A stretch of DNA of 53,687 bases from Clostridiaceae bacterium (GTDB lineage Bacteria > Bacillota > Clostridia > Saccharofermentanales > DTU023): contig JAAYRJ010000047.1 in assembly GCA_012518845.1 (NCBI GenBank), positions 1 through 53,687 on the forward strand. Direction: 5' to 3'. Below, in pieces: positions 17,672-43,406 of the stretch. Position 1 is the first letter of the stretch, and each line of letters starts with the position of its first letter. The position numbers were made by a program, and so were the translations under genes. The notes under the pieces are model-generated. The model had not been told where the DNA came from and did no database searches. It saw only the letters and a list, made by a program, of their open reading frames with translations.

Positions 17672-19738
17672 ATGAGTGTAATCAAGAAAAGTAAAAACTT
17701 TAAAACATTGCTTGTTATTTTATTAATATTGAGTATTATTCCGCTTGTTTTATTTTTGGATAGAGAAACTCAGGCAGAAATGAACTTTCCGGTTGAAGCT
17801 GTTATTAATGCTTCCCCCAGACTTAATATTCGCAAAGAAGCCAATACTAAAATCAGTGCGATAGGTTCAATTAACTATGGAGAAGAAGTCCTCTTATTAG
17901 AGCAAGTTTCTGGTGAAATAATTAATGGCGATAATAGATGGTATCGAATTGATTACAATAATCAGGATGGCTATGTCTCAGCTCAATATGTGACAATTCA
18001 AAGTTGGCAGCCGGAATTGCCACCAACGCCACAGGATCAAGAATTTGAGAGATACCTTGAAGAACAGGGATTTCCAATTTCTTACAGGCACTATTTACAT
18101 CAACTACATAATAAATATCCCAAATGGCAATTCAAAGCCCTAAACATAAACTCTGATTTTGATTCCATGCTCAATAATCAATATAGACCAGAAGGATCAA
18201 TTAATTACGTTGCAACTAGCTATCCAGATGGTTTTAAATCAAAAGCTTCTAAAGATTTTGATAAGGAAACCAATACTTGGGTTCAATATGAACCGGGTTG
18301 GGTGGCTGCAAGTAAAGAGGGTATTGCCTACTACATGGATCCACGTAATTTTTTAGATGAGACTCATATATTTATGTTTGAAAGTCTAAGTTATAATCCA
18401 GAAATTCATACTCGGGAGGGAGCTTGGAACTTATTAAAAAATACCTTCATGGAATCAGAATACTATTTAAATGCGTATATGAAAGCAGCAGAAATTTCAG
18501 GCGTCTCACCTTATCATCTAATTTCTCGAACAAAAGTCGAAGTTGGTGCACAGGGTTCTGATGCTACTAGTGGGGAAGTACCTGGTTTAGAAGGATATTA
18601 CAATTTTTATAGTATTGGTGCTTTTGGTAGTTCGACCAACCCATTGATTAATGGGTTATATTATGCACGTGATGCACACAAAAGTAATCCAGCTAGACGT
18701 GAACGATTGATGTTACCTTGGGACTCCCCAGAAAAAGCTATAATAGGTGGCAGTATTTTCATAGGTGATGATTACATTAATAATTATCAAAATACTCCTT
18801 ATTTACAAAAATTTGACTTATTGCATAATCCCAATTATATACATCAATATATGACTGCAATTATGGCCCCTGCAACCGATGCAAAAAATATGTATTATGC
18901 GTATTACAATCAAGGGAATTTAGGTGAAGCCAAGGAATTTTTAATACCAGTTTTTACCTCGATTCCTGACACGGTTGCCCCCTATCCAGATAGTTCAGGC
19001 GGGACCCCCAATAATTGGTTGCGTTCAATATATATAGACGATGCTTTGTTACCGGGATTTGAAACTTCAACTTATCAATATCAATTTGATTTGAACGTTC
19101 CCAATAATCAAATTACAATCCAGGCAAATCCATATAATCCCTATGCCCAAGTCGATGGAGTAGGGACTTATTCACTTACTCCAGGTAAAAACGCCATTAA
19201 ATTGACAGTAACTGCAACTAATGGTGAACAAAGATTTTATGAATTGATTATCAATTATCAAGGACAAATTCAAAATGAAATAAAAAGAGTTCAAAGCGAT
19301 GTATATCAAATTCAGCCTAATGGTTATATCTATGGTTTAGATGAAAAACAAAACTTGAATTTGGCAGAAAATGCTTTAAAAAATATTAATACAATTGATG
19401 GTACAACTCTTTCTATCGTTTCTACTAATGGTCAACAAAAATCAAGTGGAAAATTAGCTACGGGAGATTTACTTCATCAAAAAAAAGGTGATGATATCGT
19501 TGGCACTTATACTTTTATTCGTTTAGGAGATGTTAATGGAGACGGGGATATTGATATTATCGATATCGATGTCTTGATGCGTTATTTATCAGATTATCTT
19601 GAACTAAATGAAGTTAGCCTTTCAGCTGCCAATGTTCTACAAGATGGTGAGCTGGATATCTTTGATGTTGATTTGATTCTAAGACATGCTGGTGGTCATT
19701 TAACAATCGATCAATTCCTTAAACCAATTTCTGATTAA
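17672..19738 (+). CDS. Secreted peptidoglycan hydrolase: SH3b + N-acetylglucosaminidase (LytD-type glucosaminidase) + cadherin-like beta-sandwich + C-terminal dockerin
   Basis: 688 aa. Signal peptide KTLLVILLILSIIPLVLFLDRETQA. SH3b-like RLNIRKEANT...NRWYRIDYNNQDGYVSAQYV. Glucosaminidase core YMKAAEISGVSPYHLISRTKVEVG...GYYNFYSIGAF. Cadherin-like domain NNWLRSIYIDDALLPGFETSTYQYQF...LTVTATNGEQRFYELII. Duplicated dockerin segments GDVNGDGDIDIIDIDVLMRYL and LQDGELDIFDVDLILRH. Confidence 0.8.
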   Translation: MSVIKKSKNFKTLLVILLILSIIPLVLFLDRETQAEMNFPVEAVINASPRLNIRKEANTKISAIGSINYGEEVLLLEQVSGEIINGDNRWYRIDYNNQDGYVSAQYVTIQSWQPELPPTPQDQEFERYLEEQGFPISYRHYLHQLHNKYPKWQFKALNINSDFDSMLNNQYRPEGSINYVATSYPDGFKSKASKDFDKETNTWVQYEPGWVAASKEGIAYYMDPRNFLDETHIFMFESLSYNPEIHTREGAWNLLKNTFMESEYYLNAYMKAAEISGVSPYHLISRTKVEVGAQGSDATSGEVPGLEGYYNFYSIGAFGSSTNPLINGLYYARDAHKSNPARRERLMLPWDSPEKAIIGGSIFIGDDYINNYQNTPYLQKFDLLHNPNYIHQYMTAIMAPATDAKNMYYAYYNQGNLGEAKEFLIPVFTSIPDTVAPYPDSSGGTPNNWLRSIYIDDALLPGFETSTYQYQFDLNVPNNQITIQANPYNPYAQVDGVGTYSLTPGKNAIKLTVTATNGEQRFYELIINYQGQIQNEIKRVQSDVYQIQPNGYIYGLDEKQNLNLAENALKNINTIDGTTLSIVSTNGQQKSSGKLATGDLLHQKKGDDIVGTYTFIRLGDVNGDGDIDIIDIDVLMRYLSDYLELNEVSLSAANVLQDGELDIFDVDLILRHAGGHLTIDQFLKPISD

Positions 19739-19750
19739 TGGGGAGTTAAC

Positions 19751-21142
19751 ATGAAGAAAAATCTAAATAAAATACTGTTAGTAATTGTTTGCATTAATTT
19801 AATTTTTGTGGTTACAGCAACCTTTACTTTTGCCACTGAACAGCAGCCAAATAATCAAACAAACACAACATCTAGTCAGGTGTATTTCACGGTTTCAAAA
19901 TCAGAAATTAATATAGGCGAAGAATTTTCAGTTTCAGTTATAAATAATTCAGGCAAACCAGTGACTTCAGCCTCAATTGGCCTTGACTTTGATCCGGAAC
20001 GTTTTGAAGTAGTTGATGCAAAAATTTTTGGTACAGATCCTGCCTATAAAAGCGTTAGTGAAGGTCAATATACTTTATTTAAAGTTCAAGATGCAGCGAC
20101 CCCGTATGCGGGAGAAGAAATTGCCCGTTTTGTTTTGATAGCAAAAGAAAACATTGCAGGCAATTCATCTTTACAATTGTCTACATCTAAAATAGGTTAT
20201 GGTAAAATTGGTGAGATGGTAATGGAACTACCGGTTGAGAATAAAGAAGTGACATTTACCCTAATTAATTCAAATCCAGAGGAAATACCGCTCGATACTG
20301 GTACTACAATTCCGGAACCTACAGATCAAGACGAACCTTTAATTCCGAGTGAACCAAGTCATAAAGAGCCTGAAATTACTACTTCACAGACTCTACCTTC
20401 AGAATCTGAGGAAGAAACCAAGGTAACAACCACACCTACAACTACACCAACCAGTAAAGCACAAGCAACTGAGTCAATTACCAAAGAAACTGTAGAGTCA
20501 GAGGAGCCAACAGAACCAAGCATTACAACTAATTCCACCACAGCACAACAACCAACAAAGCCAGATAATAAGCCTACATCTACAAATGAAGCCGAGTCAT
20601 CTCGAAATACACAAGATGATCAAAATAATGGCAAGGAAACTGAGCAAGAAACGATGAGAACATTTGTTATTGAAGTAAATGAAAACTCGGTGGATATTAT
20701 TGCAAATGAAGAGCAGACTGCACCAATTGCACAAGCAAATCACCCAACTCAGACTACTACAGAAACTAGAAACAATCTGCCTGCCAGCCACACCGAAAGT
20801 GAAACAAGTGACAAACCAACTGTACAAGTAGAACAAACTACTAATGAGAACAAAGAAGAAACTGAACAAAGTGAAGCCACATCTTTATCGACTGAATCAG
20901 AAGAGGAGACTGAAGCTAACAGTTCAGCCATAAAAATCGAACAAATATCTAGTCAAAATACCAAAACGAATGAGCTTGAAAACGAGGATGAGAAACAAGC
21001 TAAACAAGAAAAAGCCTTTGAATTGACAGAAGAAGAATCAGAATTGCATAATTACGTAATCATGGGCGGGTTAGCAATAATAGCTCTAGGTTCAATAGGT
21101 GCTCTTGGTTTTATGGTTTTCCATGGTAATAGGCCAAGATAG
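19751..21142 (+). CDS. Membrane-anchored cohesin-domain-like protein with a long Thr/Glu/Ser/Pro/Gln-rich stalk
   Basis: 463 aa. Signal peptide ILLVIVCINLIFVVTATFTFA. A ~140-aa beta-sandwich-like region has cohesin-type strands (VYFTVSKSEINIGEEFSVSVIN...ASIGLDFDPERFEVVDAKI...IARFVLIAKENIAGNSSLQL). A ~250-aa low-complexity spacer follows. Single C-terminal TM YVIMGGLAIIALGSIGALGFMVF with no LPXTG. Starts 12 nt after the dockerin protein. Confidence 0.55.
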   Translation: MKKNLNKILLVIVCINLIFVVTATFTFATEQQPNNQTNTTSSQVYFTVSKSEINIGEEFSVSVINNSGKPVTSASIGLDFDPERFEVVDAKIFGTDPAYKSVSEGQYTLFKVQDAATPYAGEEIARFVLIAKENIAGNSSLQLSTSKIGYGKIGEMVMELPVENKEVTFTLINSNPEEIPLDTGTTIPEPTDQDEPLIPSEPSHKEPEITTSQTLPSESEEETKVTTTPTTTPTSKAQATESITKETVESEEPTEPSITTNSTTAQQPTKPDNKPTSTNEAESSRNTQDDQNNGKETEQETMRTFVIEVNENSVDIIANEEQTAPIAQANHPTQTTTETRNNLPASHTESETSDKPTVQVEQTTNENKEETEQSEATSLSTESEEETEANSSAIKIEQISSQNTKTNELENEDEKQAKQEKAFELTEEESELHNYVIMGGLAIIALGSIGALGFMVFHGNRPR

Positions 21143-21155
21143 GAAGGCATGTGTT

Positions 21156-21644
21156 TTGACAAATAGGGATTCCGCAGAGAGTTTCAAGAAAAAAATAAAA
21201 TCTAAGGAATTTATTATTTATCTGATTGTAGGGGTAATTGTTACTCTTGTAAACTGGTTGACATATACACTCTTATTTACAATCTGGCAAAATAGCAATT
21301 GGCGTTTAGCAAATTTTATTGCTATTTTCACTTCGATCTTAGTTGCCTATTTTTTAAACAGAAATTATGTTTTTCAGTCTAAAGCTAATATTTTTCCAGA
21401 AATAATTTACTTCTTTGCTTCGAGATTAGTCATTTCAGCTATATTTGAACATGGAGTTATGGAATTAATGATTAATGTTTTAAACTTTAATCCAGTTCTT
21501 CATGTTTTCCAATTTGATTTTCCAATTATTAAAGTTATAGGCTCAGTTTTTGTAATCATTGGAAATTATATAGTAGGAAAGTTTTTAATCTTTTCTGAAG
21601 ACAAGTATTTTGTAAAAAGACAGAGCAAAATTTCACAAAAATAA
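21156..21644 (+). CDS. GtrA-family membrane protein (polyprenyl-linked sugar translocation family)
   Basis: Four predicted TM segments. EFIIYLIVGVIVTLVNWLTYTLLF...LANFIAIFTSILVAYFLNRNYVF matches the GtrA-like signature. The track ORF opens at 21099 inside the previous gene. TTG 21156 follows an AGGAAGG RBS (21141-21147). Confidence 0.7.
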   Translation: MTNRDSAESFKKKIKSKEFIIYLIVGVIVTLVNWLTYTLLFTIWQNSNWRLANFIAIFTSILVAYFLNRNYVFQSKANIFPEIIYFFASRLVISAIFEHGVMELMINVLNFNPVLHVFQFDFPIIKVIGSVFVIIGNYIVGKFLIFSEDKYFVKRQSKISQK

Positions 21645-21665: not shown

Positions 21666-23159
21666 ATGACTAATTATGAACGAAAAATACATAATTCAAA
21701 ATCAAACGTAGATTGGTCTTTTGATCAGGCAATTGAGTTTTTAGCTTCTGCAAAACGACTTAGTAAAAGACCTGGTTTGCCACGACTAAAAGAATTATTG
21801 ACAAGATTAGGAAACCCTCATTTTGCTTGTCCTGTTATCCACGTTGCAGGCACAAATGGCAAAAGTACTGTTTGTTCAATGATTGCTTTTATTGCAGCAG
21901 AAGCTGGTAAAAAAGTAGGTCTTTTTACTTCGCCTTATTTAAAAAATATTACTGAAAAAATTCGCATGTTAGATGGTAAAAGTGGATTACAACAAGTTTT
22001 TGAAGATTCACGTGCTGTAGAAATTTCTGAGCAAAACTTTACTAATATTATGGCTGTTATTGCCTTTGAAATAGAAGTGATGAAGGCAAAGGGATATGGA
22101 ATTCCTTCCGAAGAAGAAATCCTAATAGCTGCTGCCTTTATCTATTACGCCGAAATGGAATGCGATTTACTTATTTTAGAAACTGGTATGGGTGGCATCA
22201 TGGATGCAACAAATATCACAACAAATAAAATTGCTACTATTATAACTGCTTTAAGTTATGACCATGTCGAACCAATGGGTAAAGACATTACAGAAATTGC
22301 AAAAGAAAAAACAGGAATTATCCAAAAAGATGTTCCAACTTTTCTATATGATCCTTTCGATACAGTTCTATCTGAGGAAGATGCTGCCAAAGTTACAGAT
22401 GTTTTTATCAAGGAAACTAACAAATTAAACTCACCCTTAAAAATTGTCAAACGATCTAATTTAGAGATTATTTCATCATATCTTTCTGGTCAGTCTTTTA
22501 AATATAAAGATTTAGGTCCATTTACAATTCAATTTGGTGGCGATTATCAAGCACAAAATGCGGCTCTAGCTATTGAGGGCTCAATGCTTTTTACAGATAC
22601 TCACACAATCGAGAATGGACTTGCTTTAGCCAGATGGCCAGGCAGATTAGAATCAGTGACCAAAGATCCCTATGTACTTATTGATGGTGCACACAATCAA
22701 CAAGGTGTATTAGGACTTAAAAAACATCTTGAAAAATTCTTTGCAGGTCAAAAGATTATCGTATTGATGGATGCTTTAAAAGGTAAAAATTTTCATGAAA
22801 TGATCGAAACCTTCCTCTCATCAAATCTCTATTCTGTATCTCAAATAATTTGCACAGAATCTGATTTTGAGAAAAAATTATCTGCTAAAAAATTTGCCAA
22901 AAAAGTTCAGAAGATCAAAGCAAAAGGGAAATCTAAAGAAAATCTAGAAATGCTACAAATAGACGAAAACTTATTGAAGTGTTGTGTAAAAATTAATGAC
23001 AAAATTATTTTATATTCAGACGATAGAAAATTAGCAACTAAATATGCTTATAAATTAGCCGTAGAAAACAATGTACCGTTAATTGTGTTTGGATCACAAT
23101 ATTTGATCGGCAATGTTAGATCAGGCTTGTATGATTTGTCGAAAGGTAAAGAAATTTGA
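21666..23159 (+). CDS. folC: Folylpolyglutamate synthase / dihydrofolate synthase
   Basis: 497 aa. Mur-ligase P-loop HVAGTNGKSTV, ILETGMGG, VLIDGAHN. It has a C-terminal extension relative to typical FolC. Confidence 0.85.
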   Translation: MTNYERKIHNSKSNVDWSFDQAIEFLASAKRLSKRPGLPRLKELLTRLGNPHFACPVIHVAGTNGKSTVCSMIAFIAAEAGKKVGLFTSPYLKNITEKIRMLDGKSGLQQVFEDSRAVEISEQNFTNIMAVIAFEIEVMKAKGYGIPSEEEILIAAAFIYYAEMECDLLILETGMGGIMDATNITTNKIATIITALSYDHVEPMGKDITEIAKEKTGIIQKDVPTFLYDPFDTVLSEEDAAKVTDVFIKETNKLNSPLKIVKRSNLEIISSYLSGQSFKYKDLGPFTIQFGGDYQAQNAALAIEGSMLFTDTHTIENGLALARWPGRLESVTKDPYVLIDGAHNQQGVLGLKKHLEKFFAGQKIIVLMDALKGKNFHEMIETFLSSNLYSVSQIICTESDFEKKLSAKKFAKKVQKIKAKGKSKENLEMLQIDENLLKCCVKINDKIILYSDDRKLATKYAYKLAVENNVPLIVFGSQYLIGNVRSGLYDLSKGKEI

Positions 23160-23941
23160 ATTGGCAAAGATACTATAAATTTTTTAATTATTTAAATATA
23201 GCAGAGGCCGATTATTTTGCAACGCCCGAAAAAGCAACCCAAGCTATTTCTACATATAATCGTGCCTTAAGAATGCTCAAAAATAACAAAGATCAAACGG
23301 AGGCAATCAAGCTAATCCAAACTATAGCTGATGACTATCCAATGTTTCCAGAACCTTCACATATATATGGAATTCATTTAGCTGAGCAAGGTGAATATAA
23401 GGAAGCATTAGAGTATCTTAAAAGAGTCTCATTACTTGATATTACGGATGAAATGGCCAATATGCTACAGGAACAATTTGTAGTGATTGAACGCGAACTA
23501 AAAGCCGAAAGAAGTAGTGCAAGAACTCAGACACAGAAAACTAAAGAAACTCCACAAAACAAAAAAGCCTCATTAGGATCTGTTTTGCAAAAAGCACCCA
23601 AACATCACAATAAGGAAAGTTTAAGCAAGTCAGAGATCAATGCTATTAATAAAAAGCTAGGTAACGAAGATCCTAGTGATTTAAGTGAAGAGATAGCAAG
23701 AGAAAATCGAGTTTCAGATCGCAGATTTTTGATTTCTGTATTTGTTGTTGCCGTTTTGGTAATTAGTATTTTTTATTTTGTGATTAGACCAGCAGTAGTA
23801 AATCGCCTAGATGGTGGACAAACAGTTAATCAATTGCAATGGTTAGAAAATGAAATTACTGATAGAGCTAAAGACGATCCAGAAATAAATAAATTACTTA
23901 ATGATTATTTGTCAGAATTTAGTGATGAATCTGATAAATAA
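23156..23941 (+). CDS. Hypothetical single-pass membrane protein with an N-terminal TPR-like region
   Basis: 261 aa, with a TTG start overlapping the folC TGA (TTGA). TPR-like AEQGEYKEALEYLKRV, a basic low-complexity middle and a TM segment FLISVFVVAVLVISIFYFVI. Confidence 0.45.
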   Translation: MNWQRYYKFFNYLNIAEADYFATPEKATQAISTYNRALRMLKNNKDQTEAIKLIQTIADDYPMFPEPSHIYGIHLAEQGEYKEALEYLKRVSLLDITDEMANMLQEQFVVIERELKAERSSARTQTQKTKETPQNKKASLGSVLQKAPKHHNKESLSKSEINAINKKLGNEDPSDLSEEIARENRVSDRRFLISVFVVAVLVISIFYFVIRPAVVNRLDGGQTVNQLQWLENEITDRAKDDPEINKLLNDYLSEFSDESDK

Positions 23942-23976: not shown

Positions 23977-25620
23977 ATGCAATATCAAACGACACGTAAT
24001 TCCAAAAAATTATATTCTTTCGAAGAAATGATCAGGACAAACATTCCAGTTTCAGATGGATATTTTGTACCAGAAAAAATGCCAGTTCTTTCGGATACAT
24101 TTATAAACGAATTAAGACCATTGAATTTTTTAGAAAGAGCAAAGAAAATATTTTCCGTTTTTGCTCCTGATCTAGACGAAAGCCTTATTTCAGATATTAT
24201 TGAATCGGCGTGGCGAGATGATTTTGAACTCGAAAAATTACCTGAGAGTAAATTGTTAAATCCTTATTTAGAAAACCCAGCATTTATCTTTATGTGTAAC
24301 GGAAAAACAGGATCCTACTTGGATTTTGTACATTCTTTTTTACTCTCGATCATTAAATATTTAAGCAAAAAAGATGAAAAATGGTTATTGATAACCAATG
24401 AAAAAAACACTGATATCAAAGCTATGTTGGGCTTAGATTTTGATCCTGAGCAATTTACTCCTGTTATCATTGTCAACAGTCGCAATACCAATAATTTTAC
24501 TTTGCGTGAAATGCAGTATATCTGGAATGAAAAGCATTTTTCTTATAACGACCAGGAAGTAAATAAAGAACAAGAAGAAATATTAACTTCTGATCAAAAT
24601 CGCGATACAACTAATTTAGAAGATCTAAGCAATAACAAAATTTTAGATTTTTCGGACGATTTTGTTGAAGCAAACAAACTGGATGTTTTTCGTGTCAAAG
24701 CAGATATTAGAGAATTTGAAAGAATAACGGAGACTTTATTTCAAAATCAAGAATTAAGAGCAAAGCTACAAGATAAAAATATACACCTATTCCATATGGG
24801 TAGTTTAAATTTTGCCTATTATATTGCTTTAGTCATGCTCTTAATTTCTGCATATCTAGATTTAATTGAGGCAGAAGTATTAGAAAATGATGAAAATTTT
24901 ATATTTGCTTTTCCTAACAACAATTTAGATTTTCTATATGCAGGTATATTACTCATAGAATTAGGTTTACCAATCTCTAAATTTTCTCTTACCACTAATA
25001 GGAACAAATCGATTATTGAGTTTTTGGACAAGGGCACTCTCAAGGAAAATCGTAAGTTTTTTAATACCAATACAGAAGGATTAGACCAAATCTATTTTCC
25101 AAATCTCGAATATTTTATCTTTGAAATAGTTAATCGTGATGTGGATAAAACAAAGCAAGCACTTGAAGATTTAAGTTCAAATCAAAATGAAACATTAATC
25201 AATATTTTAGAAGACTTTAGAAATGTTATTCAAACAGATAGTATTTCTAATAAAAAAATAAAGAAACAAATCAGTGATTGGTATTTGCGAACAGATTACC
25301 TTTTTGATCCATATACTGCTTTGGTATTTGAGCATTTAACTAAAACAGGAAAAATTGAATCCAGCCAAGAAAAAATAATAATCCCAGTAATTGAGCATCC
25401 TCTATTATCATCTCAATTGATGGCAGAAGCCATTTTTTCTAAAAAACAAACTAAAAGAAAACATTTTAATCAAATTATGGCAATGGTTAGTGAAGAAAGT
25501 GGTCTCACAGCTCCAGTTTCGGCTCTTTCAACCACAGCTTCACCCGAGGTTATCTACCTCGAAATAAAGGATTTGATATCAAAACTTGAGGAAGTGTTCT
25601 TAAATGAAGAAGTAGAGTAA
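23977..25620 (+). CDS. Threonine synthase-like protein with a degenerate active site (probable pseudoenzyme)
   Basis: 547 aa. The ThrC N-terminal signature is kept (YQTTRNSKKLYSFEEMIRTNIPVSDGYFVPEKMP), as is the C-terminal block FPNNNLDFLYAGILLIELGLPISKFSLTTNRNKSIIEFLDKG, which parallels E. coli ThrC PSGNFGDLTAGLLAKSLGLPVKRFIAATNVNDTVPRFLHDG. The PLP-lysine site TLAFKDFG is replaced by TGSYLDFV, and ATSGDTG by TNEKNTD. Confidence 0.65.
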   Translation: MQYQTTRNSKKLYSFEEMIRTNIPVSDGYFVPEKMPVLSDTFINELRPLNFLERAKKIFSVFAPDLDESLISDIIESAWRDDFELEKLPESKLLNPYLENPAFIFMCNGKTGSYLDFVHSFLLSIIKYLSKKDEKWLLITNEKNTDIKAMLGLDFDPEQFTPVIIVNSRNTNNFTLREMQYIWNEKHFSYNDQEVNKEQEEILTSDQNRDTTNLEDLSNNKILDFSDDFVEANKLDVFRVKADIREFERITETLFQNQELRAKLQDKNIHLFHMGSLNFAYYIALVMLLISAYLDLIEAEVLENDENFIFAFPNNNLDFLYAGILLIELGLPISKFSLTTNRNKSIIEFLDKGTLKENRKFFNTNTEGLDQIYFPNLEYFIFEIVNRDVDKTKQALEDLSSNQNETLINILEDFRNVIQTDSISNKKIKKQISDWYLRTDYLFDPYTALVFEHLTKTGKIESSQEKIIIPVIEHPLLSSQLMAEAIFSKKQTKRKHFNQIMAMVSEESGLTAPVSALSTTASPEVIYLEIKDLISKLEEVFLNEEVE

Positions 25621-27451: not shown

Positions 27452-28888
27452 ATGAGCAAAACAACAAAACAAAAAACAACTTTCAGCTTAATAATCTTGT
27501 TATTAATAAGCTTTTTACTAATTAATTTGGGCAATGCCAAAACTCAAATAGTGCAAGCCAATATTTTTGGTTTTTTTAAAGATGAAGATAGCCAAGTAAC
27601 AGAGCTAGACAACCAGAATATTTCTATTCAGACAGATGACAGTTACTGGTTACTACCCGGAAATTTTTTAGAACAGGAAGAGCCACAACAAGATATTACT
27701 TATCCTGATTTTTCGGAAATTGAAGCAGCCCAATATATTGTTATGGATATGGAAAGTGGCGAAGTTTTACTTGAACAAGGCATGAATGAGATAGCATATC
27801 CAGCAAGCATGACAAAAATCTTAACTGCACTAACTGTTTTAGAATCTCCTGATTTTGATCTAGAAAAACCAATTGTTTTTTCAGAATATGCAGTTGAAAT
27901 GCCCTCACCAGTATCAGTAACCGCAGGTTTTTCTCCTGGCGAAGAATCAACAACTAAAAACGCTCTTGCCTTAATGTTAATTAAGTCAGCTAATGATTGT
28001 GCAAAAGCGTTAGCAGAAAATTATGGTGGTACAGAAGCAGATTTTGTAAACTTAATGAATGAAAAAGCAGAGGAAATTGGTTGTACAAATACTAATATGA
28101 CAGAAGCTGCTGGTTTTGGTTTGGAAGATCATTATTTCTCACCCCATGATCTTGCCTTGATCATTCAAAGAGCTATGCAAAATGAAGTTTTTAAAGAGAT
28201 CGTTTCAACCAAAACCTATTTTGCGGAGCCAACATCTTTTAGACCATCAACAGGTTGGGAAGTAATCAATAATAGTAACCTTTTATTGCTGCAAGGGGAC
28301 GATTTATTAAATTCTCCTTATCTTCACACATATGACGGTGTAAAAACTGGTACCACAGATCTTGCAGGTCATTGTCTATCTGCAACTGTTCATACTTATG
28401 ATGGTAGACATTTATGTGGAATTATTTTTAATGGCAATCTAGAATTAGGATCGGGTAGAACGCAAGTTGGTGTTTTGCTTAGAGGAATTTTAGAACAAGC
28501 TGCAATTAATGCTAATTGTCCAGCTGATGAAGCAGCATTAGAATTTTTAAAAGATCATACAGAAGTAGTTGCAAAAATTCAAGAAGTAAAAAATGAACAA
28601 ATAAATCAAATATTTGGTTTAAATGAGAAAGCAGAACAAGAGGCTCAAGTAACAGAGACAACTCCTCCTCAAACAATAAATGAAGAGACTTATACTGAAA
28701 CAATGCTAGAGGAGCGAGCTGATCAATTAGAACCTTCAGACCAGACAGAATCTTCGGAGCAAACAAATTTATTACAAAAAATTAAAGATCTACCTAATAC
28801 AGTAATCATGGGTCTTTTATTTCTTTTGTTTATATTACTAATATTTCTTTTTATTAAACTCCTCAAACCAAGAAAAAAGAAAAAATAA
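27452..28888 (+). CDS. Serine-type D-alanyl-D-alanine carboxypeptidase (PBP5/DacB-like low-molecular-weight PBP) with C-terminal membrane anchor
   Basis: 478 aa. Signal peptide, SxxK (PASMTKILT), SxN (KSANDCA), KTG (VKTGTT), an acidic linker and a C-terminal TM VIMGLLFLLFILLIFLFI followed by KPRKKKK. Confidence 0.85.
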   Translation: MSKTTKQKTTFSLIILLLISFLLINLGNAKTQIVQANIFGFFKDEDSQVTELDNQNISIQTDDSYWLLPGNFLEQEEPQQDITYPDFSEIEAAQYIVMDMESGEVLLEQGMNEIAYPASMTKILTALTVLESPDFDLEKPIVFSEYAVEMPSPVSVTAGFSPGEESTTKNALALMLIKSANDCAKALAENYGGTEADFVNLMNEKAEEIGCTNTNMTEAAGFGLEDHYFSPHDLALIIQRAMQNEVFKEIVSTKTYFAEPTSFRPSTGWEVINNSNLLLLQGDDLLNSPYLHTYDGVKTGTTDLAGHCLSATVHTYDGRHLCGIIFNGNLELGSGRTQVGVLLRGILEQAAINANCPADEAALEFLKDHTEVVAKIQEVKNEQINQIFGLNEKAEQEAQVTETTPPQTINEETYTETMLEERADQLEPSDQTESSEQTNLLQKIKDLPNTVIMGLLFLLFILLIFLFIKLLKPRKKKK

Positions 28889-31963: not shown

Positions 31964-32851
31964 ATGAGCAAAACAAAGAAAACAAAAAATAAGAGGGCAC
32001 AAAGAATATTAATTTTCTTTGTTTTTTTAATAGGATTAGCTATATTTAGCTATCCACTATTTTCACGTTGGTATTACCAAATTGATGCAAATCAAGAAGT
32101 TTTAGATTTTAGAACCGAACAAAGCAAATTAGATGAAGTCGAGATCGAAGAACGTTTAGCTTTAGCACAAGCATATAATGATTCTTTAGTCAATTATGTG
32201 GCAGCAGATCCATATGAAAAAGAACGTCTGGATCAAGGTCTGGCCGAATACGCACGCATGCTAGAATTACATGAAAAAATAGGTATTGTGGAAATTCCCT
32301 CTATTAGTGTTAATCTCCCAGTTTATGCCGGCACATCTGAAATAGTTTTACAAAAAGGTGTGGGCCATCTTGAAGGAACTTCTTTACCAATAGGTGGCAA
32401 AAGTTCTCATACAGTTTTGACAGCTCATTCTGGTTTGCCTGAGGCCAAACTATTTAGTGAGTTAGAAAAAATGGAAATTGGTGACATTTTTTATATACAT
32501 AATTTAGGTATGACTTTAGCTTATGAAGTAGATAATATCTTAGTTATTGAACCATCAAATTTTGAAGACTTATTAATTGTTCAGAATCAGGATTATGCGA
32601 CTCTTCTAACTTGTACACCTATAATGATAAATTCACATCGTTTAATAGTCAGAGGACATCGAATAGCGTTTGATGCTGGTGTGCGTGATGATTTGATAGA
32701 TTCCAGCAAAAATGAATTACTAATACGTCGCTTACTAACAGTAGCTCTAATCTTAATTGTAATTTTCTTAATCTTAATATATCGTGAACGAAAAACACAT
32801 AAAAAATTAATCACTAAGCTAAATAAAATCAATAATAGTCGTGATATATAG
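31964..32851 (+). CDS. Class C (pilin-polymerising) sortase
   Basis: 295 aa. N-terminal TM, AQAYN, lid-like DPY, IPSISVNLPVYAGTS, catalytic His in VLTAHSGLP, Cys in ATLLTCTP, Arg in LIVRGHRI, and a C-terminal TM. Confidence 0.9.
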   Translation: MSKTKKTKNKRAQRILIFFVFLIGLAIFSYPLFSRWYYQIDANQEVLDFRTEQSKLDEVEIEERLALAQAYNDSLVNYVAADPYEKERLDQGLAEYARMLELHEKIGIVEIPSISVNLPVYAGTSEIVLQKGVGHLEGTSLPIGGKSSHTVLTAHSGLPEAKLFSELEKMEIGDIFYIHNLGMTLAYEVDNILVIEPSNFEDLLIVQNQDYATLLTCTPIMINSHRLIVRGHRIAFDAGVRDDLIDSSKNELLIRRLLTVALILIVIFLILIYRERKTHKKLITKLNKINNSRDI

Positions 32852-34184
32852 GTTAATTATGCAGCAGGAAGATACAACAAACATAAAAAAAGCCAAGCAT
32901 TATCGCGTCTTAAAAAGAATAGCCTTGATTTTGATAATGGTATTTTTGATGTCTCCATTATTTTTTCATTTAATGTATCGAGAGTATCAAGATGAACAAA
33001 TCAAAAACTTTGAAGTTGATGTTAACGCCATGCCGGATTATGAAACAGAAGAACGGATGCGTTTAGCGAGAGCATACAATGCCAATTTACCTGAACAGAA
33101 TGATCGTGGTTTTAGCTTAGTGGGCAATCTCTTTGGTATTTTAGAAATACCAGCTTTGGATTTAGTTTTACCCATTTATTTAGACGAACAAACGGCAGAA
33201 TTTACCTATGAACCACCATCTCTCATAGATACAGAAGATTGGATAAGTCAGCGCCCAACTAGAACTAATCCAACAATTGAAGCCAGTGAGGGCGAACAAA
33301 TAGATACTACTTTCAAAATTACACAATCCGTAGAAATTCCTACTACTAGTCAAGCAACAACAAGCCAAACAGAGACAACAGCTTCTAGTGAACAAACTGA
33401 GACAATAGCTCCTAGTGAACAAACAGAGACTGAACCGACCAGTACAGCATCTGAAACAACCCAAACTCAAGCAACAGAAAGTAGCACTATAGCAGAAACC
33501 GAAACAACAATTGAAGCAACGACAGAAAAATTGACTGAGACAGAAATAACTCAATCAGCAGAAGCAAAAGTTACCTCAGATATCTGGCAAGCTATCGATG
33601 ATTTTTTTTCTGGTGACAGATTAGCCACCAAATTTAGCACTTGGTATGAAAATCAAGCCCATCAGCTATTTTCAGATAAAGGTGTTTATCATCATAAGGG
33701 TAGTTTTGTTCCTGATGGCGGTGAGAATCAACCACTTGTCTTATTTGGTAATCAGGGCAATATTGTTATGCCAGAGCTATTTCGTTTAGAAAAGCTACCA
33801 AAAAACAGTAATATTTTACTACACACTTTTAACTCAACCATAAATTACCAAGTTAAAGCAATCAACAAAAATAAAGTTGACCAAACTGAATTAGTAATTA
33901 CTGATTCACCCCATGATTTACAAATTATTGCTCAATCCAAAACAACTAATACCATTGTAGAGGCTGCTAGGGTTGAGACTAGGGAGGCTAATATGAATGA
34001 AATATTAAGTAATCCGACAGTTTTCATTTTACTCTTGCCTGTTATCTTAGTATTAATTGGAATTTTCATCTATCAAAGGATAACCAACAAAAAATTAGAA
34101 AATCGAATTAAAGAAATTGAACGCAAGGTGCAAGAACAAGCTAAAGAAGACAATCGTTCTCAGGCAAATAGTGAAAAAAACTAA
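32841..34184 (+). CDS. Sortase C-like paralog lacking catalytic His and Cys, with a Thr/Glu/Ser/Gln-rich insertion (pseudo-sortase)
   Basis: 447 aa, colinear with the preceding sortase: N-terminal TM, ARAYNANL, ILEIPALDLVLPIY, KGVYHHKGSFVPDGG (versus KGVGHLEGTSLPIGG). TAHSG is replaced by FGNQG and LLTCTP by IIAQSK. A ~130-aa low-complexity insert (about aa 125-255) interrupts it. C-terminal TM VFILLLPVILVLIGIFIY. It overlaps the upstream sortase by 11 nt. An alternative ATG lies at 32859. Confidence 0.65.
   Translation: MIYRLIMQQEDTTNIKKAKHYRVLKRIALILIMVFLMSPLFFHLMYREYQDEQIKNFEVDVNAMPDYETEERMRLARAYNANLPEQNDRGFSLVGNLFGILEIPALDLVLPIYLDEQTAEFTYEPPSLIDTEDWISQRPTRTNPTIEASEGEQIDTTFKITQSVEIPTTSQATTSQTETTASSEQTETIAPSEQTETEPTSTASETTQTQATESSTIAETETTIEATTEKLTETEITQSAEAKVTSDIWQAIDDFFSGDRLATKFSTWYENQAHQLFSDKGVYHHKGSFVPDGGENQPLVLFGNQGNIVMPELFRLEKLPKNSNILLHTFNSTINYQVKAINKNKVDQTELVITDSPHDLQIIAQSKTTNTIVEAARVETREANMNEILSNPTVFILLLPVILVLIGIFIYQRITNKKLENRIKEIERKVQEQAKEDNRSQANSEKN
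33381..33434 (+). repeat. Imperfect 27-nt tandem duplication inside the low-complexity insert of the pseudo-sortase
   Basis: GCTTCTAGTGAACAAACTGAGACAATA followed by GCTCCTAGTGAACAAACAGAGACTGAA: 22 of 27 identical, encoding ASSEQTETI/APSEQTETE. Confidence 0.7.
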
Positions 34185-34285
34185 GCTCAAACTAGCAAAA
34201 TTTAAAGTTACAAATATTAAAGTTTTATTAGAAATTTGTTATAATGGACCACAGACGTATTATTTTTCTAAAGAGGAGGATATGT

Positions 34286-34750
34286 GTGCAATTAAATATT
34301 ACTACCGATTATGCAATTCGTTCTGTTTTGTTTTTAGCTTTGAGGGATGAAATTGTTAAGAGTCAAGAAATTGCAAATTATGCAAATTCATCACCTAATT
34401 ATATTTTTAAGATCCTAAGAAAGCTAGTCGATGCTGGCTATGTTAAAGAACATCGTGGTGTTAAAGGTGGATATAAATTGATAGTATCCCCAGCACAGCT
34501 AACACTCTGGGATATAATTGAACTTATGGAGCCAAAGACCCATATTAATCGTTGTGTAGAAGATTCAGAATTTTGTTTTAGATCGAAGTCAGAACGTTGT
34601 CGTGTTCATGCCATTTATCTTGATTTACAAAATAGAATAGAAAACTTTTTCAAGAGTTATTCGATCCAACGGATAATAGATGAACAAGCCCAAGTAAGCG
34701 TAGAATTTATAGAAGAGGTAACTAAAATAAGCGTCAAAGCTTGTTCTTGA
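34286..34750 (+). CDS. Rrf2-family transcriptional regulator with a three-cysteine (probable Fe-S) motif
   Basis: A GTG start at 34286, 6 nt after AGAGGAGGA, gives MQLNITTDYAIRSVLFLA, the typical Rrf2 N-terminus. The wHTH is SQEIANYANSSPNYIFKILRKLVDAGYV..HRGVKGGY. Cys cluster CVEDSEFCFRSKSERC. The track ORF opens upstream at 34244. Confidence 0.8.
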   Translation: MQLNITTDYAIRSVLFLALRDEIVKSQEIANYANSSPNYIFKILRKLVDAGYVKEHRGVKGGYKLIVSPAQLTLWDIIELMEPKTHINRCVEDSEFCFRSKSERCRVHAIYLDLQNRIENFFKSYSIQRIIDEQAQVSVEFIEEVTKISVKACS

Positions 34751-34844
34751 TAGACATTAAACAAAAAATCTTTAGCAAAGAATTTTCAAATAATAGGTTG
34801 AAAAAACTTTTCTAAAGGCTAGTTTGTCAAGAAGTTATAGATAG

Positions 34845-35507
34845 ATGTTAAAATTATGGTACGAAACGGCAATGGATACAGAACTCAATGTTGAGACAAT
34901 TCCGTTGCGTGAATGGCAAGATCAAGCCAAAAGAAAACATTATAATCGGACCGAATCTACACCTTATCAAGCAATTGATGAATTGTTTGAATATTATCAA
35001 ATGCCTCACAATGCCAATTTTGTTGACTTTGGCTGCGGGACTGGTAGAATAGCTTTTTATGTGCACAATCGTTTTAATGTTCCTGTTACGGGAGTCGAAT
35101 TGAATCCTCTAACATATAAAGACTTACAAAAAAATCTCAAGACATATAATAAGCGTGATCTTACATCTGATGACAGGTCAGATTACATAAACCCACAAAA
35201 TAAGATTGCACCCATTAACTTTTTTTTAGAATATGCAGAAGAGTTTCAGATACAAAAAGAGCACAATGTTTTTTATTTTTTTAATCCGTTTTCAACCCCT
35301 ATCTTTGAAGCTGTCATCAACAACATTAAAAAATCACTAAAAAAACATCCACGTCAAGTGGATATAATCTTATACTATCCTTTATACGAAGTTCAATCAT
35401 TATTAGAGAAACAAACAATTTTCAAACGTCTAGGTACATTATATTTAGATGAAATTTACGAAGATGAATTTGAAAAGTTTCTTGTTTACAGATACATGGT
35501 AGACTAA
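34845..35507 (+). CDS. Class I SAM-dependent methyltransferase, substrate unknown
   Basis: 220 aa. Motif I FVDFGCGTGRIAFYV, motif II-like TGVELN, post-I acidic residue. Confidence 0.65.
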   Translation: MLKLWYETAMDTELNVETIPLREWQDQAKRKHYNRTESTPYQAIDELFEYYQMPHNANFVDFGCGTGRIAFYVHNRFNVPVTGVELNPLTYKDLQKNLKTYNKRDLTSDDRSDYINPQNKIAPINFFLEYAEEFQIQKEHNVFYFFNPFSTPIFEAVINNIKKSLKKHPRQVDIILYYPLYEVQSLLEKQTIFKRLGTLYLDEIYEDEFEKFLVYRYMVD

Positions 35508-35574
35508 AACAAAGTCTTGAGTTACAATAGACTGATTCCAATAAATCACAAAAAATATATAGCTAACATCAATT

Positions 35575-35835
35575 ATGGATACAAATAATTTAAAAAAATT
35601 ATCACGTAAAGATTTGTTGGAGCTTTTGCTTGAACAAATGAAAGAAAATCAAGAACTTAAGCAACAATTAGAAGTCGCTCAAAATGAGCTCAAGAGACGA
35701 GAAATCATTGTTAGCAAAAAGGGTACATTGGCGGAAGCAGCCTTAGAAATTGTAGAAATTTTTGAAAAAGCGGATGAGGCAGCTCAAATTTATTTAGAAA
35801 ATGTTAAGCATAACGAATTTAATGATGATAACTAG
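35575..35835 (+). CDS. Small coiled-coil hypothetical protein
   Basis: 86 aa. LSRKDLLELLLEQMKENQELKQQLEVAQNELKRREI then GTLAEAALEIVEIFEKADEAAQIYLENV. No TM or signal peptide. It ends 11 nt before the signal peptidase gene. Confidence 0.4.
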   Translation: MDTNNLKKLSRKDLLELLLEQMKENQELKQQLEVAQNELKRREIIVSKKGTLAEAALEIVEIFEKADEAAQIYLENVKHNEFNDDN

Positions 35836-35846
35836 GAAGCGATAAT

Positions 35847-36437
35847 TTGGGATCTAAAGCTAGCACAAAGAATATAACGCCAGAAATCGATCAAGTTGAG
35901 CAAGAATTAGAAAAAGAAATAGAAAAAAAGAGATTTCGCAAAGCCTTAAGATCAACGATATTTTCATTAATTACAGTTGCGGCTATTGCAGTAATTATTT
36001 CTGTCTTTTTTCTACCGGTGTTACGTCTTTACGGGAGTTCAATGACCCCAGGTCTTAATGATGGTGATATTGTGATCGCTTTAAAAAAACAAGAATATGA
36101 GGCAGGCGAAGTAGTAGGACTTTACTATGGCAACAAGCTTTTAGTAAAAAGAATTATTGCAGGTCCAGGTGACAAAGTCGACATAGACGAAGTAGGCAAT
36201 GTCTATGTCAACAATGAATTATTAGTAGAAGATTATTTAGACGAAAAAAATTATGGCGAAGTCACAATAGATTTACCTTACCAAGTACCAGAAAATAGAT
36301 GGTTTGTGATGGGAGATCATCGATCAACTTCCATTGATTCAAGGAACAGGACGGTAGGAACCATTTCAAATGATCAGATTGTAGGCACTTTAATTTTTAG
36401 AATTTGGCCCTTGGATTCACTCGGTAAAATTGAATAA
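35847..36437 (+). CDS. Type I signal peptidase (LepB/SipS family), pilus-locus associated
   Basis: 196 aa, TTG start. N-terminal TM IFSLITVAAIAVIISVFFL, box B with Ser (YGSSMTPGL), box D with Lys (LLVKRIIAGPGD), box E (FVMGDHRSTSIDSR). Confidence 0.85.
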   Translation: MGSKASTKNITPEIDQVEQELEKEIEKKRFRKALRSTIFSLITVAAIAVIISVFFLPVLRLYGSSMTPGLNDGDIVIALKKQEYEAGEVVGLYYGNKLLVKRIIAGPGDKVDIDEVGNVYVNNELLVEDYLDEKNYGEVTIDLPYQVPENRWFVMGDHRSTSIDSRNRTVGTISNDQIVGTLIFRIWPLDSLGKIE

Positions 36438-36463
36438 GATAACTATTTTTACAAATTTTATAT

Positions 36464-41761: not shown

Positions 41762-43382
41762 TAAAAACATCACAATGCTAATACTTGCCCTAGTCTTAAT
41801 CTTGGCAAGCATTAGCCCCCAAGCAGCAGAAGCACAGAATAATGGTAAGATAACCATTACCAATCCAACAGAAGGCGTAACATATGAAATCTATAGGGTG
41901 TTTGATTTGACCTATAGTTATGAAGGAACTGCTGATAATAAAACTAATGAAGCATATAACTATACAGCAGTATCAGCAGATTTGGAAACGGCACTTACAG
42001 GAACAGATTATGCTAGGATATTAACAGATAAAACGAATCAAGCAGGAAGAAAAATAGTTAATGATAAGATACTTTATCCTCTTGATGATGGCACAACAGG
42101 AACAGGCGATATAATTAATAAATACGACTTTTCCAATTGGTTATATAATAATGGCAAGCCAGCAGATTTGGGATTGGTAAAAGTTAATGATACAGGGACA
42201 ACTGGAACTGAAGGATTAGAGTTTTCTAATTTACCACTAGGCTATTATCTTATTAAATCAAGCCAAGGCTCAATCGTATCCCTTAATACAACAGACACAG
42301 AAGTAGAAGTGGTTGACAAAAACATTAAGCCAACATTGACAAAGCAGGTAAGATTACCAGTGGCGACAGGTGAACAAGAAAATGCATTTGCTGATTCAGT
42401 TTATGCTAATATTGGTGAAAATGTAAATTATCAAATAGAATTTACAGTTCCAGCACATGCCAATCATCCTTTTACATTAACAGATATTTTAGGTACTAGT
42501 CTTGATTATGTATCTGGATTAAAAATTGAAAGAGTGGATAGTACAAATGCTGCTACAGATATTACTGCTGGAACTGAAACAGGCTATACAATAACAAAAA
42601 CATCAACATTTTCAGGTGATACTCCCAGAGAATTAAAACTCACTTTCCCCGTAGAAACCATTAGAAATTTAAGAAATCAAACAGTAAGAATTACTTATAC
42701 AGCAAAATTAAATAATACTGCTAGTACGAGTAATCACTCTGGACTAGTTGATAATTTAAATAATACAACATTAGCTTTTGACCCTTCAACAGATGTAGAA
42801 GATTTAACTGCAAAAGCATCAGTAAGAACCACAGACTTTAATGTTAAGAAATATACGCTCGATGGCACTACAGAAAAACCATTAGCCAATGCAAAATTTA
42901 AGATCTTCACAGAAGCTACTGGCGGCACTGCATTAAAATTTACTAAAGATGCAACATCAGAAAAATATTATCATGATCCGACAGGAATCGTTGACGAAAT
43001 AACCACTACAACTGAAGGAACTGTAAATGCAACTTTCAATATCGTAGGTCTTAAACCAGGAACATACTACATCGAAGAAACAGCAGCACCTGATGGTTTT
43101 AATGCAATTCAAGGAAGAATTAAATTAGAGATTGCTGAGGAAACTGTAACACCACCAGCTACTAATCCAACAAAAATGACTTATAAAGCAACCATTGAAG
43201 AAACAGCATCAGATTTAACAGACAACACCGTAAAAATCAAAAACCAATCCGGTGGTGAGCTTCCATCCACAGGTGGTGTTGGACGTACGATGATTTATAC
43301 AGTTGGAGCTATTTTATTCATAGGTTCATTAGTATTGATTATTGCTAGAAAGAGATCAAAGAGTACAGAGAATAACAAATAA
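41748..43382 (+). CDS. Major (backbone) pilin, SpaA/RrgB-like, LPSTG sorting signal
   Basis: 544 aa. Signal peptide ITMLILALVLILASISPQAAEA and N-terminal domain GKITITNPTEGVTYEIYRVFDL. Pilin-motif-like lysine context EVEVVDKNIKPTLTKQV. E-box YYIEETAAPDGFNA. LPSTG (43260-43274), then a TM and a basic tail. AGGAGAGGA RBS. The start lies inside the last 14 nt of the tip adhesin gene. Confidence 0.85.
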   Translation: MKKFSKNITMLILALVLILASISPQAAEAQNNGKITITNPTEGVTYEIYRVFDLTYSYEGTADNKTNEAYNYTAVSADLETALTGTDYARILTDKTNQAGRKIVNDKILYPLDDGTTGTGDIINKYDFSNWLYNNGKPADLGLVKVNDTGTTGTEGLEFSNLPLGYYLIKSSQGSIVSLNTTDTEVEVVDKNIKPTLTKQVRLPVATGEQENAFADSVYANIGENVNYQIEFTVPAHANHPFTLTDILGTSLDYVSGLKIERVDSTNAATDITAGTETGYTITKTSTFSGDTPRELKLTFPVETIRNLRNQTVRITYTAKLNNTASTSNHSGLVDNLNNTTLAFDPSTDVEDLTAKASVRTTDFNVKKYTLDGTTEKPLANAKFKIFTEATGGTALKFTKDATSEKYYHDPTGIVDEITTTTEGTVNATFNIVGLKPGTYYIEETAAPDGFNAIQGRIKLEIAEETVTPPATNPTKMTYKATIEETASDLTDNTVKIKNQSGGELPSTGGVGRTMIYTVGAILFIGSLVLIIARKRSKSTENNK

Positions 43383-43406
43383 TGGTAGATCATCAAGGGT
43401 GATCAT

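Follow-up and report, generated by a model that had tools for sequence, protein, structure and literature searches.

A dockerin-bearing GH73 hydrolase beside a membrane-anchored cohesin protein: a candidate non-cellulosomal tether for a wall hydrolase in Clostridia

Cohesin–dockerin pairs are famous for plant-fibre-degrading machines, and the role of the scattered pairs found outside cellulosomes is an old question. Two adjacent genes of a Clostridiaceae bacterium (lineage Saccharofermentanales; DTU023) raise it again. They lie in a stretch of 53,687 nucleotides (nt) from contig JAAYRJ010000047.1 of assembly GCA_012518845.1, the whole of which is called the window here. The first open reading frame, ORF1 (17672-19738, 688 amino acids, aa), encodes, as judged from domain matches, a secreted peptidoglycan N-acetylglucosaminidase of family GH73 with a C-terminal dockerin. 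The second, ORF2 (19751-21142, 463 aa), encodes a type I membrane protein that carries a distal cohesin, as judged from the reading frame and the architecture of syntenic neighbours. Both genes, with all their features described below, are on the + strand, and 12 nt separate them. Why should a wall hydrolase carry a dockerin, and is the cohesin next door its receptor? The answer that we consider probable is that the two genes are a minimal non-cellulosomal cohesin–dockerin module that tethers a wall hydrolase on the producing cell.

ORF1 begins with a probable signal peptide (aa 1-35, 17672-17776), read from the sequence as a basic n-region, a hydrophobic core and a TQA/E junction; the homologue alignment (A3) shows conservation of this core and of the Ala-Glu junction. 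It is followed by an SH3b (SH3_3) wall-binding domain (aa 50-107, 17819-17992; Pfam PF08239, E = 5.3e-11, 43 bits), which also matches the SH3b domains of wall hydrolases in the PDB. The GH73 catalytic region (aa ~190-426, 18239-18949) was assigned from PDB and NCBIfam matches. In phmmer searches of the PDB, aa 204-426 matched solved SagB (6fxp/6u0o, 1.3e-11), the Atl glucosaminidase (6fxo, 2.8e-10) and AtlE (4pi7, 3.3e-10). The NCBIfam SagB model NF052642 matched ORF1 with E = 1.5e-16; this match scores 60.4 bits against a curated cut-off of 425 bits, so ORF1 is not a SagB orthologue, and the homology is confined to the catalytic domain. Next to ORF1, no SpdC-like gene was seen.

An alignment of 11 diverse homologues, with identities down to 35%, shows no change at Glu290 (18539-18541) or in the motif H391-Q-Y-M394 (18842-18853). 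In the alignment with SagB, Glu290 falls on the Glu of the LLETG motif, and HQYMT of ORF1 on HQYAT. From what is known of family GH73, Glu290 and HQYM are presumably the catalytic residues. As far as the alignment tells, the catalytic motifs of ORF1 are intact, and membership of GH73 predicts that the enzyme would cleave the GlcNAc-β-1,4-MurNAc bond. A Cadherin-like β-sandwich (aa 460-525, 19049-19246; Pfam PF12733, 25.6 bits, cut-off 24.2) follows the catalytic region, and its match is stronger in homologues, for instance 44.8 bits in a protein of the Ruminococcus bicirculans type. Between this domain and the dockerin lies a module of ~80 aa without Pfam match (aa 533-612, 19268-19507), present in homologues of 680-720 aa and absent from the Ruminococcus-type proteins of 590-610 aa. 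An earlier first-pass annotation of the window had read a signal peptide, an SH3b-like domain, a glucosaminidase core and a cadherin-like domain in ORF1, and all four are recovered here (SH3_3 and Cadherin-like in Pfam, GH73 through the PDB). Its term "LytD-type" is right as to the glucosaminidase and means simply GH73; the closest solved structures are SagB, Atl-GL and AtlE.

An indexed search returned 5790 homologues of ORF1, many of R. bicirculans type, and nearly all of the best 120 have the SH3_3/Cadherin-like/Dockerin_1 set of Pfam domains. The nearest match from a named genome, at 62% identity, belongs to an uncultured Mageeibacillus sp. (Oscillospiraceae).

The C-terminus of ORF1 is a type I dockerin (aa 614-682, 19511-19717; Pfam PF00404 over aa 618-669, 22.7 bits, cut-off 22.9). 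The pattern of this domain consists of two repeats of ~22 residues, each with a 12-residue EF-hand-like calcium loop (ligands at positions 1, 3, 5, 9 and 12) and a helix. Loop 1 (DVNGDGDIDIID, 19529-19564) is canonical, repeat 1 (D-V-N-G-D-G-D-I-D-I-I-D) fitting the pattern fully. Loop 2 (NVLQDGELDIFD, 19631-19666) is a conserved variant, N-x-L-Q-D-x-E-x-D-I-x-D, which in ORF1 reads N-V-L-Q-D-G-E-L-D-I-F-D, with Leu at ligand position 3 and Gln at position 4. The variant is conserved across the clade of the window, while distant orthologues have the canonical ADMNGDGKVDVID. ORF1 itself matches the solved dockerin 2ccl_B with E = 0.002; a profile of the clade's C-termini matches those of Ruminococcus bromii Amy10 (2.8e-6) and Clostridium thermocellum XynY (1.3e-5). 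Orthologue dockerins clear the Pfam cut-off, for instance with 48 bits in the R. bicirculans type. The domain had been described beforehand as a textbook duplicated dockerin: it is a dockerin and its first repeat is canonical, but with Leu at a ligand position of the second it is not a textbook one.

The cohesin was harder to recognize. The whole ORF2 protein gave no match in Pfam or NCBIfam and none in the PDB by single-sequence phmmer. A word-indexed homologue search found one fragment only, and an exhaustive HMMER search across 1.84 billion representatives found only 10 relatives, whose common layout is an N-terminal β domain, a proline box, a low-complexity stalk and a conserved C-terminal anchor. 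Single-sequence searches gave nothing useful; it took profiles, the isolated domain and structure to bring out the cohesin signal. The isolated domain scores 21.6 bits (E = 2.7e-4) against Pfam Cohesin PF00963, whose cut-off is 24.1; the full-length homologues P0124, P0125 and P0126 exceed this cut-off with 33.7, 27.5 and 31.8 bits. In the PDB, a profile of 8 sequences matched the NagJ cohesin of Clostridium perfringens at 5.7e-5, and a profile of 64 syntenic partners matched dozens of cohesins, down to 7e-19.

Structure prediction gave the same picture. Single-sequence AlphaFold2 of aa 1-185 reached a predicted local distance difference test (pLDDT) of 40; with 12 aligned sequences, aa 36-181 were modelled at pLDDT 90.7 and a predicted template modelling score (pTM) of 0.84, as an all-β domain of 10 strand elements (DSSP). 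The cohesin fold is a nine-stranded flattened β-sandwich, or jelly-roll. The top 50 PDB matches of the model in Foldseek are all cohesins (probability 1.00, template modelling score, TM, 0.54-0.71). The best is 2jh2, the non-cellulosomal cohesin of C. perfringens GH84C, and identity to the nearest structure is 22%. Four lines of evidence (homologues that pass Pfam, the score of the isolated domain, the profiles and the predicted fold) agree that aa 40-177 (19868-20281) are a real cohesin. The cohesin-like region of ~140 aa in the first-pass annotation began as pattern recognition; it now stands on significant matches both by profile hidden Markov models (HMMs) and by structure. Among the Pfam families proposed for the two proteins, Cadherin-like is thus found above its cut-off, Dockerin_1 and Cohesin fall just under theirs, and for Glucosaminidase (PF01832) no match to ORF1 was reported.

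The remainder of ORF2 describes a surface stalk. A probable signal peptide (aa 1-28, 19751-19834: MKKNLNK, a hydrophobic core and TFA/T) was read from the sequence and a hydropathy scan. Past the cohesin, composition indicates a disordered, acidic stalk rich in Thr, Glu, Ser and Pro (20282-20983); the spacer counts 256 aa, 70% of them T/E/S/P/Q/N, with a net charge of -43. Two islands in it were seen by eye in homologues: a proline box IPEPTDxDEPxxP just past the cohesin (20309-20359) and a hydrophobic, strand-like segment ETMRTFVIEVNENSVDIIANEE (20648-20713). Both recur in P0122-P0125. Next comes an extracellular juxtamembrane motif, (E)KQAKQExAFxLTx5LxN (aa 412-434, 20984-21052; alignment A8), and then the C-terminal region (21053-21142) with a transmembrane helix carrying small-xxx-small motifs (YVIMGGLAIIALGSIGALGFMVF), a basic tail HGNRPR and the stop codon. 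The hydropathy scan places the single transmembrane segment at aa 435-457, followed by the short basic tail. The juxtamembrane motif is far better conserved than the cohesin itself: its A27, Q29, E30, F33, L35, T36 and N44 are invariant in A8, in proteins whose cohesins are only 30-50% identical, and the short fragments P0127-P0129 match in the juxtamembrane region alone.

A motif scan of ORF2 found no LPXTG-like motif; the hydrophobic segment and basic tail are present. Hydropathy, composition and motif scans therefore agree with the signal segment, the Thr/Glu/Ser/Pro/Gln-rich spacer, the single C-terminal helix and the missing LPXTG that had been noted beforehand. The source organism anchors other surface proteins by sortase, by way of a pilus locus in the window. 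As the window encodes three sortases and an LPXTG pilin, transmembrane anchoring of ORF2 is a distinct choice.

Is the pair an accident of one contig? A locus survey, with one genome per species, drew on 566 relatives of the hydrolase profile, of which the best 80 were kept. The hydrolase ORF was present in 79 loci and 68 were assessable, several ending too near the hydrolase gene. Each of the 68 assessable hydrolases has a dockerin; an adjacent cohesin ORF accompanies 58 of them, in 45 cases immediately downstream on the same strand and in 13 (the Ruminococcus group) divergent, 300-500 bp upstream. The cohesin HMM of the survey was trained on the surveyed loci themselves, and for this reason the partners were also checked against Pfam Cohesin, which 58 of the 64 syntenic partner domains match at E <= 0.01. 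The background is low, with 6 cohesin matches among 1826 other ORFs and 1 other dockerin. Every assessable hydrolase having a dockerin, a comparison of dockerin presence or absence with an adjacent cohesin is uninformative; two dockerin-less relatives (L086, L088) have too little upstream flank to assess. In L013, the closest relative, an assembly gap falls at the expected position of the partner gene.

The pair is retained in 37 loci without any of the window's other flanking genes, which makes the pair itself the conserved unit. The neighbouring genes for a GtrA-family membrane protein and FolC were considered as members of the module and rejected; they travel with the pair only in a sub-clade, in ~12 of the 79 loci. 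Close relatives repeat the order of the window, PcrA-HD-YfbR-[Doc-GH73]-[Coh-TM]-GtrA-FolC, with the genes of the pair 9-20 nt apart. In L012, whose context is unrelated, the downstream gene encodes a signal peptide, a cohesin-like domain, a cadherin-like domain and a transmembrane helix. In the R. bicirculans type, the divergent partner ~400 bp upstream has a signal peptide, a cohesin, a Thr-rich linker and a C-terminal transmembrane helix. A signal-like N-terminus and a transmembrane helix after the cohesin are found in each of the 52 partners that no contig end cuts short, and an LPXTG scan flagged no partner protein in any locus. The tails past the helix fall into two kinds, short ones of 10-38 aa and long, presumably cytoplasmic ones of 53-265 aa.

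The carrier genomes, at least 58 at species level, come from gut and digester communities and are labelled Oscillospiraceae, Ruminococcus, Acutalibacteraceae, Lachnospiraceae and others; across these many lineages the pair occurs as one copy per locus. The conservation that the first-pass annotation had asked about thus extends to related and distant genomes alike. That 58 of 68 assessable loci have the adjacency, in two orientations and across unrelated contexts, would be difficult to account for if the genes had no functional link.

In partners of the Lachnospiraceae/Clostridiales type (L025, L027, L046, L048, L051, L065, L071, L072, L082), which are also encoded immediately downstream of the hydrolase, the extracellular part is structured and not stalk-like: a cohesin, a cadherin-like domain and another domain precede the transmembrane helix and a tail of 160-265 aa. 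The composition of these presumably cytoplasmic tails, often rich in Lys and Glu, hints at intracellular interactions.

Not every lineage follows the rule. In partners from metagenome-assembled genomes labelled "Bacilli/Tenericutes" (L030, 8995-10281; L041, 8928-10397; L045, 7347-8684; L047, 7901-9238; L063, 4898-6232), the cadherin-like domain, a further domain and the transmembrane helix are kept, and a β domain of ~95 aa at the N-terminus is recognized as cohesin neither by Pfam nor by the survey HMM; here a canonical dockerin may have a receptor that has diverged strongly or has been replaced. L050 and L087 have unrelated neighbours, with no cohesin-like gene on either side of the hydrolase. 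A distant match, P0130 (545 aa), unites both kinds of module in a single polypeptide: its cohesin domains number two (Pfam, 44 bits), and its C-terminal region is dockerin-like, with a double calcium loop.

How would the pair work? The domain identities, the catalytic motifs, the cohesin fold, the membrane-anchor architecture and the conserved linkage are established in the analysis, and the following steps are proposed from them. ORF2 would be exported and held in the cytoplasmic membrane by its C-terminal helix, N-out/C-in, presenting a single cohesin atop a flexible acidic stalk of ~250 residues that should be long enough to cross a Gram-positive wall. ORF1 would be secreted as a GH73 N-acetylglucosaminidase, and its C-terminal dockerin would plug into the cohesin of ORF2; we infer that the two proteins bind physically and that binding probably depends on calcium. 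The conserved adjacency (58/68) lends this binding indirect support only. With the dockerin plugged in, the muralytic enzyme would therefore stay with the producing cell and work only within the reach of the tether, a zone inside which the SH3b and β-sandwich domains of ORF1 could engage peptidoglycan. The substrate would then be the producer's own wall, and the likely role housekeeping wall remodelling, either glycan-strand trimming or cell separation, by what would be a tethered autolysin. The first-pass annotation had proposed a fixed distance above the membrane, and this part of its proposal is not supported: as the 256-aa stalk is disordered and acidic, it sets a maximum reach. The juxtamembrane motif, the GxxxA-type transmembrane helix and the long tails of other lineages suggest that the anchor of ORF2 might also be a point of control or localization, so that the juxtamembrane/transmembrane segment or the cytoplasmic tails may have a regulatory role.

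Several points weigh against this reading. The ORF2 cohesin and the ORF1 dockerin both score below their Pfam cut-offs (21.6 versus 24.1 bits and 22.7 versus 22.9 bits, respectively). Loop 2 of the dockerin lacks the ligand at position 3, and the calcium dependence and binding mode may for this reason differ from those of classical dockerins. The hydrophobic N-terminal segment of ORF1 could, from its sequence, be an uncleaved signal anchor. The relatives of Ruminococcus albus have the dockerin-GH73 gene without an adjacent cohesin, and in its place a gene for a zinc-ribbon repeat protein (L035, 8813-10366; L053, 8812-10353; L038, 5560-7071; L077, 8862-9881; L079, 2216-3496); in that lineage the partner is therefore elsewhere or absent. 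Finally, 53.7 kb of the genome were seen, and other cohesins could exist elsewhere in it. The R. albus-group protein itself consists of many CxxC...GKFCxxCG repeats with Pro/Ala/Val-rich linkers between them.

One could also see in the tethered GH73 enzyme a surface-displayed weapon or scavenger, which attacks the walls of neighbours or free peptidoglycan fragments and not the wall of its producer. The stalk could indeed project the enzyme past the producer's wall, bacteriolysins and autolysins alike commonly have SH3b domains (both occur among the PDB matches), and the carriers inhabit dense gut and digester communities. However, in one clade the pair sits stably by PcrA, FolC, the D,D-carboxypeptidase and ribosomal proteins, it is present as one copy per locus across many lineages, and the closest solved relatives of the enzyme are housekeeping glucosaminidases. 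Moreover, the genes beside the pair in the window include no immunity gene, no gene for toxin-type secretion and no mobile element. We therefore regard a weapon or scavenger as improbable.

Less probable again is that no docking takes place: the cohesin-fold domain of ORF2 would be a carbohydrate- or wall-binding β-sandwich and the dockerin a calcium-binding stabilizer or wall-association module, the two proteins serving the same pathway. The divergence of the ORF2 cohesin (under the Pfam cut-off and 22% identical to the nearest structure), the non-canonical loop 2 and the unrecognizable N-terminal domain of the "Bacilli/Tenericutes" partners all leave room for it. On the other hand, the top 50 Foldseek matches comprise dockerin-binding cohesins only and no other β-sandwich family. 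If the two proteins bind, a dockerin and a cohesin next to it would be expected to occur together in lineage after lineage, as they do, and similarly divergent non-cellulosomal cohesins, such as that of C. perfringens GH84C, are known to bind dockerins. These considerations make it quite unlikely that ORF1 and ORF2 share a pathway without docking.

The least probable alternative is adjacency without binding, the dockerin being received by another cohesin elsewhere, such as a sortase-anchored scaffoldin, and ORF2 binding other dockerins: the part of the genome seen, the R. albus homologues that retain the dockerin without an adjacent cohesin and the promiscuity of many Ruminococcus dockerins across cohesins (R. 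bromii microarray table, PMC4611034) would allow it, but adjacency in two orientations and unrelated contexts, the report of exactly one cohesin and one dockerin in R. bicirculans (a single statement in PMC4611034), and the finding of no second cohesin or dockerin in the window and of one other dockerin among the ~1800 flanking ORFs all speak against it. The scan for a second cohesin or dockerin used HMMs and motifs in all six frames of the 53.7-kb window, and the other cohesins that the first-pass annotation had named as possible real partners were not found there. A role in a cellulosome or amylosome was rejected: the window has one cohesin and one dockerin, and none of its scanned ORFs is a hydrolase for plant polymers or starch. 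The Pfam scan covered 33 of the 43 window ORFs that reach 120 aa and assigned no plant-polymer glycoside hydrolase to any of them, and the neighbours are housekeeping and cell-envelope genes, in agreement with the non-cellulosomal role first proposed.

The single cohesin and single dockerin of R. bicirculans reportedly go back to the genome paper of Wegmann et al. 2014. The pair has left one trace in the literature on this species, a sentence in Ze et al. 2015 (PMC4611034) according to which the only cohesin and the only dockerin of the genome occur in association with an enzyme of family GH73. R. bicirculans has the orthologous pair, in which the gene of an SH3b-GH73-cadherin-like-dockerin protein, 35% identical to ORF1, adjoins a divergent cohesin-linker-transmembrane gene. 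In contrast, the genes of the window are co-directional and 12 nt apart, and the window adds the pre-dockerin module, the variant calcium loop 2 and the clade-specific juxtamembrane motif. For R. albus, dockerin-bearing GH73 enzymes figure as a table entry (PMC4081043). A literature search found no functional, structural or comparative study of a dockerin or cohesin with a peptidoglycan hydrolase or GH73 enzyme. The novelty implied by the first-pass annotation was thus slightly overstated in view of that one-sentence record.

Among known systems, the scaffoldins that serve as surface anchors of ruminococcal cellulosomes and amylosomes, ScaE of Ruminococcus flavefaciens and Sca2 of R. bromii, are similar in having a single N-terminal cohesin on a linker that holds dockerin proteins at an Oscillospiraceae surface (PMC4611034, PMC4081043). 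However, their anchors are linked covalently to peptidoglycan by sortase (LPXTG-type) whereas ORF2 has a C-terminal transmembrane helix, and their cargo consists of polysaccharide-degrading enzymes or scaffoldins whereas the predicted cargo of ORF2 is one peptidoglycan hydrolase encoded next door. The C. perfringens GH84C/NagJ cohesin (2jh2, 2o4e, 2ozn) is the best profile and structural match to that of ORF2, and the C. perfringens pairs are a precedent for cohesin–dockerin use outside plant-fibre degradation; yet their modules join secreted host-glycan-degrading enzymes to one another, with no membrane anchor and no peptidoglycan-hydrolase cargo.

With Staphylococcus aureus SagB-SpdC the likeness is functional only, attractive as the analogy may be. 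SagB, the closest solved homologue of the ORF1 catalytic core, is also a GH73 enzyme, and its activity requires a membrane-protein partner, which holds it at the membrane and positions its active site (bioRxiv 10.1101/2020.05.21.109470). However, SagB has its own transmembrane helix and binds the polytopic, CAAX-protease-like SpdC in the membrane, and there is no cohesin or dockerin. Classical autolysin targeting (LysM, SH3b, choline-binding modules, GW repeats; FtsEX) likewise restricts a potentially lethal wall hydrolase in space, and ORF1 keeps an SH3b domain; what is proposed here differs in being a plug-and-socket link to a dedicated membrane protein, and not wall-polymer binding or ABC-transporter-like control. 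The parts, and the plug-and-socket principle of cohesin–dockerin surface anchoring, are already known. What appears to be undescribed is the partner anchored in the membrane, the peptidoglycan hydrolase as cargo, how widely the pair is conserved, the variant calcium loop and the juxtamembrane motif.

The window is otherwise an ordinary chromosomal stretch of a member of the Clostridia, with a guanine-plus-cytosine content of ~34%. Upstream of the pair lie, in order, FemAB, glycine-cleavage genes, GAPDH, the OpuA transporter, HPF, PcrA and two HD hydrolases; downstream follow the GtrA-family membrane protein, FolC, RF3, a D,D-carboxypeptidase, a signal peptidase, three sortases and an LPXTG pilus cluster. 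The listed GTG start of the GtrA-family gene (21099-21644) overlaps ORF2 by 44 nt; as its orthologues have ~151-169 aa, the true start is probably further downstream. Two genes past FolC are syntenic in L010 and L011: one (23156-23941) encodes 261 aa with a C-terminal hydrophobic segment and a weak TPR signal, the other (23977-25620) 547 aa with a Thr_synth_N domain as the sole match. Other peptidoglycan-related genes of the window encode a FemAB-family interpeptide-bridge transferase (296-1528) and the Peptidase_S11 D,D-carboxypeptidase (27452-28888), the latter syntenic with the pair across the Oscillospiraceae clade. The sortase-dependent pilus locus (31964-45846) comprises sortase genes at 31964-32851, 43407-44249 and 45205-45846, a signal peptidase (35847-36437), a 1765-aa protein with a SpaA-type domain that is probably the tip adhesin (36464-41761), an LPXTG backbone pilin (41748-43382) and two ORFs without Pfam match (32841-34184, 44250-45227).

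A wider reading, which is speculative and on balance unlikely, would make the pair a widespread housekeeping module of the Clostridia and a minimal, possibly ancestral use of cohesin and dockerin, of which cellulosomes and amylosomes would be later elaborations. Through its juxtamembrane/transmembrane segment or its tail, the bitopic ORF2 would then position or gate the glucosaminidase at sites of wall synthesis or division, in the manner of SagB-SpdC or of FtsEX and its hydrolases.

For the old question about cohesin–dockerin pairs outside cellulosomes, one large family now offers a testable answer: a dockerin on a peptidoglycan glucosaminidase and a cohesin on its membrane-anchored neighbour, in at least 58 species-level genomes. 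The hypothesis is directly testable and joins two fields, cohesin–dockerin research and cell-wall biology. The pair bears on how the parts of the cellulosome evolved, and it is a compact natural surface-display system on offer for engineering. If the binding is true, an autolysin would be restrained in a new way, by a protein tether to the membrane and not by wall-polymer binding, and cell separation and wall turnover could be approached from a new side in gut anaerobes that are abundant but genetically difficult.

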